IMG/VR virus record: IMGVR_UViG_3300050015_001049
Coordinates: 1 to 43,546 of that record
Reading direction: 5' to 3' (one strand)
DNA length: 43,546 bases
From: a virus
Shown here: piece after piece, positions 3,344 to 3,418 of the stretch
How the letters are laid out: each line of letters starts with the position of its first letter
Position numbering within the stretch: the stretch's first letter is position 1
Program-made: the position numbers and the translations under genes
The notes under the pieces: model-generated
Told to the model about the DNA's origin: nothing
Seen by the model: only the letters and a program-made list of their open reading frames with translations
Database searches by the model: none

Positions 3344-3418
3344 GGTCCATTAGCTTAGTTTGGTCTAAAGCTCTGGCTTCTAAACCCAGGATCGTGGGTT
3401 CGACTCCCACATGGACTA
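3344..3418 (+). tRNA. tRNA with anticodon CTA (amber suppressor, reads UAG)
   Basis: Cloverleaf: acceptor GGTCCAT / ATGGACT (G1:U72). D arm GCTT...AAGC with GG in the loop. Anticodon stem CTGG(C) / (C)CCAG, loop 'ttCTAaa' (U33, A37). T arm GTGGG-TTCGACT-CCCAC. Confidence 0.55.

Follow-up and report, generated by a model that had tools for sequence, protein, structure and literature searches.

A phage amber suppressor tRNA probably gates a nearby PTH2-like gene through a short leader ending in an in-frame UAG

Results

A CUA tRNA and a PTH2-like gene at one locus

We analyzed a 43,546-nt stretch of viral DNA (IMG/VR record IMGVR_UViG_3300050015_001049, positions 1 to 43,546; hereafter the window) that encodes a tRNA with the anticodon CUA, i.e. 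an amber suppressor, at 3344..3418 (+ strand; assigned by ARAGORN, Rfam and ortholog comparison). Two genes upstream of this tRNA lies a gene for a peptidyl-tRNA-hydrolase-like (PTH2-like) protein, conventionally called at 2449-2784 (+), and between PTH2 and the tRNA lies the open reading frame (ORF) ORF116 (2949-3299, +), which encodes a basic helical protein. The sequence and reading frame place a leader ahead of the PTH2-like gene at 2425..2433 (+), made of a start codon, one Lys codon and an in-frame amber codon (ATG AAA TAG; TAG at 2431-2433). Read through this TAG from the upstream ATG, the gene spans 2425..2784 (+). The protein matches PF01981 (E = 2.1e-8, 34.8 bits vs a cutoff of 23), and the profile of the phage PTH2 family matches Pth2 of M. 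jannaschii (2zv3) with E = 1.2e-10 over residues 4-104. The window derives from metagenomic DNA, as a contig of Logan run SRR35911552. All genes of the window are on the + strand, its GC content is ~31%, and the encoding phage probably infects Bacteroidota. There were no DNA-level matches of the window among GenBank phages; at the protein level, the best GenBank matches of PTH2 and of a vault-like protein of the window are in the uncultured phage genomes LR756500 (462 kb) and LR756501 (735 kb).

The CUA tRNA and its orthologs

ARAGORN assigned the anticodon cta to the span 3344-3419 (+), one of nine tRNAs that it called in the window, and the Rfam model RF00005 matched with 57.8 bits (gathering score 29; E = 5e-10) over model positions 1-71 of 71, a full-length cloverleaf. 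The first-pass annotation had proposed a CUA tRNA at this site from its cloverleaf, subject to a model-based check; the covariance model now accepts the tRNA and no sense anticodon is assigned. The tRNA is 75 nt long and of class I, with a 7-nt anticodon loop (UUCUAAA) that has U33 and a purine at position 37, a discriminator A73 and a G1.U72 pair. The C-C mismatch described earlier in the anticodon stem is present as C31.C39. The gene has no encoded CCA, and CAAA follows the discriminator.

Since ARAGORN labels any CUA tRNA as tRNA-Pyl, we considered this identity. A tRNA-Pyl has a short D loop without GG, a 6-bp anticodon stem and a 3-nt variable loop, and goes with pylS and pylBCD. The window tRNA has GG in its D loop, a 5-bp anticodon stem and a 4-nt variable loop, and the window proteins that were scanned included no Pyl genes; a tRNA-Pyl identity was rejected.

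Using the TROVE (Ro60) protein encoded downstream of the tRNA as a query, we found 21 related viral loci, one from a 405-kb contig (IMGVR_UViG_3300027899_000001), and 16 of them bear a CUA tRNA upstream of TROVE. When 15 tRNA orthologs were aligned, the CUA was invariant and all four stems were divergent; RNAalifold recovered the cloverleaf, with compensatory double changes in 16 of 20 pairs across the acceptor, D, anticodon and T stems. A further 65 distinct CUA tRNAs, from the IMG/VR survey described below, adjoin PTH2 homologs; every one has CUA, and 51 of the 65 share the anticodon loop CUCUAAA. Since CUA is fixed while the stems diverge, the window tRNA is under selection for its anticodon. 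Hence, judged by sequence, this is a genuine phage amber-reading tRNA that is predicted to be functional.

No clear parent isoacceptor emerged from a comparison with 124 phage tRNAs, as the best identities (0.66-0.73) were scattered over many types. Among the CUA tRNAs beside PTH2, the discriminators vary (A 37, G 16, U 11, C 2) and so do the acceptor stems, which suggests that the anticodon arm drives aminoacyl identity. In CUA tRNAs of E. coli, the 31-39 pair shifts charging between LysRS and GlnRS, the lysyl- and glutaminyl-tRNA synthetases (PMC1483225).

Separately, a tenth tRNA-like match at 38343-38418 (+), uncalled by ARAGORN, scored 29.1 bits, exactly at the Rfam threshold; it may be a degenerate tRNA.

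A conserved in-frame TAG precedes the PTH2 body

The window reads ATG(2425) AAA TAG(2431) CTT AAT CAG AAA TTA ATG(2449). The conventional call (2449-2784) reflects an ATG that lies five codons past the TAG in this phage and in none of its close relatives. Earlier, all ORFs of the window had been described as ending conventionally; that description misses the in-frame TAG between ATG 2425 and the PTH2 body.

We found that all 15 of 15 huge-phage PTH2 orthologs have the arrangement ATG-(1-7 codons)-TAG, in frame with the body. The leaders vary in length (MK#, MKKPFYY#, MKDT#, MKR#, MS# and MT#, with # for the TAG) and the orthologs run from the leader TAG into the conserved first strand, KL[IV]VITRRDL. 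In 12 of the 15, there is no ATG, GTG or TTG from the TAG to the first strand, and the next canonical start is up to 103 codons downstream.

Second in-frame TAGs occur inside PTH2 in five lineages. Two independent contigs (loci L036 and L037) have one within LEPG#VSEKL, beyond which the sequence is still conserved, and the same is seen in L063; LR756501 and L101 have one in EFP#IY, and L110 has one in ALR#FV. Comparison of PTH2 between L036 and L037 shows 7 synonymous and 4 non-synonymous codon differences, and 4 of the synonymous ones lie past the second TAG. Hence, this region is apparently translated. At the positions of internal TAGs, other PTH2 homologs mostly have E, D, Q or T; the candidate amino acids for insertion at UAG are Gln, Lys and Glu.

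Two side observations concern these orthologs. Gene callers omitted the L036 PTH2 altogether. In addition, a 15-codon ORF, MK#IKITIRGPTYLF, directly follows the PTH2 stop in LR756500.1 (~111420-111500, -) and may be a partial duplicate of the leader.

Survey of PTH2 loci in IMG/VR

A profile of the PTH2 body found 209 IMG/VR relatives, and we surveyed the best 80 of the 209, which have 40-85% identity and lie on contigs of up to 501 kb. Going upstream from PTH2, the first in-frame stop is TAG in 77 of the 80 loci; counted as distinct sequences, it is TAG in 60 of 63, TGA in 3 and TAA in none. As background, TAG is that upstream stop for 26% of long ORFs in the same loci. An ATG lies 2-12 codons ahead of the TAG in 59 of the 60 distinct TAG sequences, and 66 of the 77 TAG loci have no canonical start ahead of the first strand. 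In these 60, the base that follows TAG is a purine (A in 48 and G in 12). In E. coli, a purine following UAG favors suppression, and the purine here fits such a context.

A CUA tRNA on the same strand was present within 4 kb of PTH2 in 70 of the 80 loci, the extremes being 3 nt on the downstream side and 1.35 kb on the upstream side. An intact CUA tRNA is missing from all three loci in which the stop ahead of PTH2 is TGA. PTH2 of L097 starts at an ordinary ATG, and the tRNA found 16 nt downstream of it has lost one base of the CUCUAAA loop. L105 has neither an in-frame start nor a CUA tRNA, and in L121 (IMGVR_UViG_3300032782_000001, 436 kb, 50% GC) the PTH2 homolog has an ordinary Shine-Dalgarno-GTG start. 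L121 also carries two tandem UCA tRNAs (opal suppressors; 6529-6703), 2.2 kb downstream of the PTH2 homolog.

The pairing of gene and tRNA is also seen outside the survey. The order PTH2, ORF116, tRNA is kept in every tRNA-bearing locus related to the window, even with TROVE 4-5.5 kb off; in L012, TROVE is present and PTH2, ORF116 and the tRNA are all absent. In LR756500, the PTH2 homolog is 780 nt upstream of a solitary CUA tRNA, and in LR756501 two tandem CUA tRNAs lie 2.1 kb downstream of PTH2. More distant homologs of ORF116, including one on a 338-kb NCBI contig (JBINOJ010001091.1), adjoin a CUA tRNA and a PTH2 homolog as well.

Both elements also occur in cultured phages. One is Tenacibaculum phage pT24 (LC168164.1; 234,670 bp; announced in PMC5502841), in which ATG AAA TAG ATA runs into the PTH2 body, and an annotated tRNA-Sup lies 2.5 kb upstream of PTH2. 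The deposited start of the pT24 coding sequence BPT24_235 (L130 4097-4915) is 32 codons inside the PTH2 domain, which we consider misplaced because the start proposed here as the true one precedes an in-frame TAG. In mycobacteriophage Alice, an annotated peptidyl-tRNA hydrolase (gp150) is followed 250 nt on by an annotated tRNA-suppressor(cta), and in Myrna (L128, NC_011273), the PTH2 homolog gp84 is followed 130 nt on by a CUA tRNA. Myrna gene 86 (3475-3546) is a tRNA-Ser in GenBank and ARAGORN reads CUA in it, an apparent annotation problem.

Comparison across these lineages supports a genuine tRNA selected for its anticodon, a conserved in-frame TAG, a scarcity of other starts and the co-occurrence of gene and tRNA. 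From this we infer that UAG is decoded at the PTH2 leader.

Standard coding is most likely for the genome overall

Recoding of TAG was assessed by coding density and by tests of TAG junctions. The window ORFs of at least 80 amino acids (n = 64) end in TAA (46), TGA (15) or TAG (3). The coding density of the window is 0.845 with code 11 and 0.857 with code 15, and codes 11, 15 and 4 give practically the same density in the window and in all related loci (~300 kb). Only one in-frame TAG junction of sizeable ORFs was found in the window, at 15969. We rejected the reading in which this TAG lies inside one fused radical-SAM gene, since homologs align to residues 195-501 only; they cover the second ORF alone, so these are two separate genes. 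Read-through of the TAG-TAG (29305) after an aminomutase-like gene was also rejected, as the extension is unrelated to the LAM_C domain; the LR756500 homolog of the aminomutase-like protein aligns to residues 7-387 only. An all-frame BLAST for in-frame TAGs spanned by homologs was discarded as too noisy, since related DNA aligns in non-coding frames.

The TROVE genes of L010 and L021 stop at a TAG that coincides in position with the TAA of their orthologs. No conserved read-through extension was found after TAG-ending genes (extensions were short or unrelated), and there was no enrichment of back-up stop codons after TAG across the lineage. As a side observation, two of the three large TAG-terminated window genes close with tandem stops, TAG-TAG (29303-29308, +) and TAG-TAG-TAA (34116-34124, +).

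LR756500 is a complete 462-kb relative with 26 tRNAs, including a CUA tRNA (Rfam 43.7 bits). Its coding density is 0.903 with code 11 vs 0.901 with code 15, TAG ends 30 of 633 genes, and just two in-frame TAG junctions occur, with Met directly after each. Read in the standard code, its genes for terminase, portal and head protease are intact. The portal (T4 gp20 family), used as a query, gave no match in genome contigs, and the 405-kb contig was not among the viral-contig matches.

These sequence measures make the standard code the most likely one for this genome overall. The first-pass annotation had linked the suppressor to recoded late or structural genes elsewhere and had suggested a scan for genes that are full-length only with TAG as a sense codon. 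The amber-reading tRNA stands; recoded genes gave no signal in the window, the related loci or LR756500, the late genes of this phage lying outside that sequence.

A model for amber gating of PTH2

We consider it likely, from this comparative evidence, that the conserved client of the amber suppressor is the PTH2-like gene of the same transcription unit, and that synthesis of PTH2 is gated by the suppressor. In this model, the suppressor tRNA and PTH2 would be co-transcribed, and translation of PTH2 would begin at ATG 2425 and reach UAG at codon 3. Translation would continue into the enzyme only when charged tRNA(CUA) beats release factor 1; with the gate closed, a dipeptide would be released and no PTH2 would be made. 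Since read-through is needed past codon 3, PTH2 output would be gated by the phage's own suppressor, and since the stop comes at codon 3, a closed gate would cost a dipeptide only.

Several observations weigh against this model. In the window, the ATG at 2449 lies five codons past the TAG and a C directly follows the TAG, unlike in L010 and L021; hence, the gate is possibly bypassed in this phage, and some PTH2 may be made without the tRNA via ATG 2449. Similarly, an alternative start comes early in 11 of the 77 TAG loci, and the codon following TAG is mostly ATT, ATA or GTT, conceivable weak non-canonical starts. The excess of TAG upstream of PTH2 (binomial P ~1e-31) is uncorrected for shared ancestry. 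Seven TAG-gated loci have no CUA tRNA in the fetched stretch, three of which (L053, L066 and L073) end just past the gene. Alice and Myrna read (ATG/GTG)-TAG-GTG, and the spacing of their Shine-Dalgarno sequence suits the GTG past the TAG, which makes gating uncertain in mycobacteriophages; the gate may be inoperative there despite the adjacent CUA tRNA. Finally, the GKGK loop is two residues shorter in the phage PTH2 subfamily, in which the EPD..T motif is conserved; with the GKGK loop of archaeal Pth2 missing, the substrate of the phage enzyme is uncertain.

What the gate is for is more speculative. The hydrolase might be scaled to suppressor activity as an antidote to the peptidyl-tRNA drop-off and non-stop stalling that come from UAG read-through; alternatively, it might provide feedback on the suppressor itself, or a timer. 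A wider proposal, which we hold only tentatively and would sooner doubt, is that the tRNA and the gated PTH2 form an autonomous, ancient circuit in hundreds of jumbo and huge phages. The hydrolase would act on peptidyl- or aminoacyl-tRNA derived from the suppressor, or on drop-off products, and so keep UAG read-through in the infected cell at a controlled level; this one-gene state would have seeded full TAG reassignment, as in Lak megaphages.

Alternative explanations

The tRNA could serve chiefly for cell-wide UAG read-through, by which host proteins would be damaged or phage proteins extended, with the PTH2 gate as a secondary sensor or antidote. We think this unlikely as the chief role. 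The retention of the tRNA over deep divergence and the recurrent CUCUAAA loop would suit it: in E. coli suppressors, A37 and A38 after CUA favor efficient suppression, and the phage loop has this context. The standard-code jumbo phages XacN1 (PMC5852040) and Atu_ph07 (PMC6102473) are also reported to carry suppressors without an identified target. Against this stand the absence of any conserved extension or back-up stop enrichment after TAG, and the finding that the gated PTH2 is the only feature that tracks the tRNA across lineages. Cell-wide read-through is compatible with the gate, as it differs from gating on purpose and not on mechanism. A switch of the phage to code 15 late in infection, with the tRNA decoding many TAGs in structural and lysis genes outside the window, is less probable again. 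The crAss-like, Lak and other phages in which TAG is recoded do carry suppressor tRNAs (preprint 10.1101/2021.08.26.457843), the TAG-recoded Lak group is among the related huge phages (PMC7162821), TAG is a rare terminator in the window, and the evidence against such a switch comes from the window and relatives rather than from this phage's own late genes. That evidence is broad: the gain in density is small in the window and in the related loci, the 15969 junction parts two unrelated genes, and TAG is the true terminator of the L010 and L021 TROVE genes. Furthermore, LR756500 has the pair of PTH2 and tRNA-CUA and yet the standard code, with intact structural genes; the gated module occurs in the conventionally annotated, cultured pT24; and cluster C mycobacteriophages bear an adjacent pair of PTH2 and CUA tRNA.

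About as improbable, or slightly more so, is that ATG-AAA-TAG is a separate mini-ORF of the bar type, that PTH2 re-initiates at AUU, AUA or GUU, and that the tRNA is unrelated. The codons that mostly follow TAG and the well-spaced mycobacteriophage GTG would agree with re-initiation, and two-codon minigenes release peptidyl-tRNA, the substrate of Pth enzymes. A mini-ORF would, however, leave unexplained why its stop is TAG in nearly all of the distinct sequences and never TAA in AT-rich genomes, why five lineages have further in-frame TAGs deep in the enzyme, why a CUA tRNA lies beside the gene in most surveyed loci, and why the ungated L097 copy pairs with a damaged tRNA. We give hardly any credence to a last alternative, raised in the first-pass annotation, that the RNA does not decode and is instead a Y-RNA-like partner of the neighboring Ro60/TROVE. 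Its 3' end is 776 nt upstream of the TROVE start at 4194 (not ~850 nt, as estimated before), and bacterial Y RNAs (YrlA) have a tRNA-like module and are located near rsr. The marks of a Y RNA by which we judged this are a Ro-binding stem between the two RNA ends, a tRNA-like module that lacks an anticodon arm for decoding, and conserved linkage to rsr. The window RNA has a canonical acceptor stem, a full cloverleaf and an intact anticodon arm with an invariant CUA, and no Y-RNA family of Rfam matched at E<=5. Its linkage to Ro60 is loose: TROVE lies at 1-5.5 kb across loci while PTH2 and ORF116 stay adjacent, L012 has TROVE without the tRNA, and LR756500, LR756501, pT24 and the mycobacteriophages have the PTH2/tRNA pair with no adjacent TROVE. 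In addition, the stretch directly upstream of TROVE holds another conserved candidate for a small RNA.

Neighboring genes and features

This other candidate, at 3740-3935 (+), is intergenic, lies just upstream of a small ORF and TROVE/Ro60, and has 80% mean column identity in its DNA, well above the flanking small ORFs. The palindrome TTCTATAGAA occurs in it twice, flanking a TATATTTG box, and its hairpin and its intrinsic terminator each show a compensatory change; its single-sequence fold has z = -2.9, and no Rfam family matched the region. It is possibly a small RNA of ~160 nt that partners Ro60, a candidacy drawn from conservation and folding.

Directly upstream of the tRNA is a GC-rich hairpin, AGCATGGAC-ACTTC-GTCCATGCT (3315..3337, +), found in a scan for terminator-like elements, which ends 6 nt 5' of the tRNA. 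Its position is kept, with a different sequence, in L002, L010, L013, L014, L015, L017, L021 and L036/37. It may be a leaky terminator or attenuator, or may protect the 3' end of the upstream mRNA after RNase P cleavage. There was no Rfam hit to an HDV (hepatitis delta virus)-like or theta ribozyme beside the tRNA.

ORF116 has 71 homologs, none of them named. Its AlphaFold2 model has three long helices with a pLDDT (predicted local distance difference test) of 87, and it had no match in Pfam, PHROGs, PDB sequences or Foldseek vs PDB. Its synteny is kept in 16 of 16 related loci with the tRNA and also in L033-L037. It is not universal to the PTH2/tRNA module, being absent from many of the 80 PTH2 loci.

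Farther upstream are a major-vault-protein-like gene (153-1661, +; MVP_shoulder E = 1e-26, Vault_3, Band_7) and a TonB_C gene (1774-2256, +), the first gene 5' of the PTH2-like gene. Downstream, the tRNA and two small ORFs are followed by the TROVE/Ro60 gene (4194-5921, +) and then, by gene order, a cold-shock-domain gene (+). The vault-like gene has a TROVE-domain gene and a small-RNA candidate 2.5 kb away, a combination reminiscent of the composition of eukaryotic vault particles.

The remainder of the window holds auxiliary genes, including an RNA ligase and eight more tRNAs. The salvage of nicotinamide adenine dinucleotide (NAD) is represented by NAD synthase (11473-12408, +), an isochorismatase-family, nicotinamidase-like protein (13305-13940, +) and nicotinate phosphoribosyltransferase (18424-19608, +), and GIY-YIG homing endonucleases are interspersed at 17682-18419 and 33489-34118 (+). 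Two more PTH2-like paralogs are at 8020-8574 and 20478-20906 (+; phrog_3668 and phrog_1866); the leader scan found no ATG-x-TAG leader in either, and neither adjoins a CUA tRNA.

Discussion

Phage amber suppressors and TAG recoding are already known. We found no description in the searchable literature of an amber-gated PTH2 paired with its own suppressor. If the model holds, a target would be found for suppressors that are puzzling in standard-code jumbo phages, a single adjacent gene, for a large group of phages, and this would be a natural gene gated by its own suppressor tRNA. The arrangement is a possible intermediate from the standard code to TAG reassignment, and it bears on how giant phages manage translation under host attack. 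The annotation of PTH2 is affected, with starts miscalled or genes missed. Since pT24 (the gated module) and Bixzunavirus and Myrnavirus (the adjacent pair) are cultured, experiments are feasible.

Comparison with known systems

Like this phage, code-15 phages (crAss-like, Lak and other gut phages that reassign TAG to Gln) have a CUA tRNA, low GC content, a standard-code host and TAG as a rare terminator. They differ in three ways. Here, the proposed recoding is limited to one gene, and to one to two codons, beside the tRNA; the gated gene is an enzyme of the translation-rescue type, not a structural or lysis gene; and TAG remains a stop elsewhere, including in the structural genes of the complete relative. 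In TAG-recoded Prevotella phage Lak-B4 (L131, MK250023.1), a PTH2 homolog (~3900-4276) has no TAG leader and has an in-frame MNI-TAA ahead of it, and a tRNA with the anticodon UUA (3356-3428) lies ~570 nt upstream, so that a suppressor-type tRNA is again beside PTH2.

Among standard-code phages, the Bixzunavirus and Myrnavirus mycobacteriophages are alike in having a CUA tRNA 130-250 nt downstream of a PTH2 homolog. Targets have not been reported for these mycobacteriophage tRNAs either. XacN1 is alike in having a CUA tRNA in a standard-code genome; its hydrolase, of the canonical Pth2 type, opens with a plain ATG, ungated and away from its tRNAs, and so the module does not explain the XacN1 suppressors, whose targets the authors sought without success (PMC5852040). 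Xoo-sp13 has its PTH2-like domain as the C-terminal portion of a larger protein, with no tRNA nearby. PTH2 in jumbo phages was noted by Iyer et al. 2021, who proposed a role in ribosome rescue and did not mention suppressors (PMC7824862).

The leader resembles in form the bar minigenes of lambda, to which we return below, and the gate as a whole resembles engineered amber-gated circuits (feed-forward and AND-gate; PMC7969014), which share an early in-frame UAG and a co-encoded suppressor. The phage version is apparently natural and widely conserved, and its output is a peptidyl-tRNA-hydrolase-like enzyme.

The lambda bar minigenes (AUG-AUA-stop) also consist of a start, one sense codon and a stop and are functionally tied to Pth. 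They are free-standing and are toxic when Pth is limiting, whereas the leader described here continues in frame into the hydrolase gene itself and has a suppressor as its partner.

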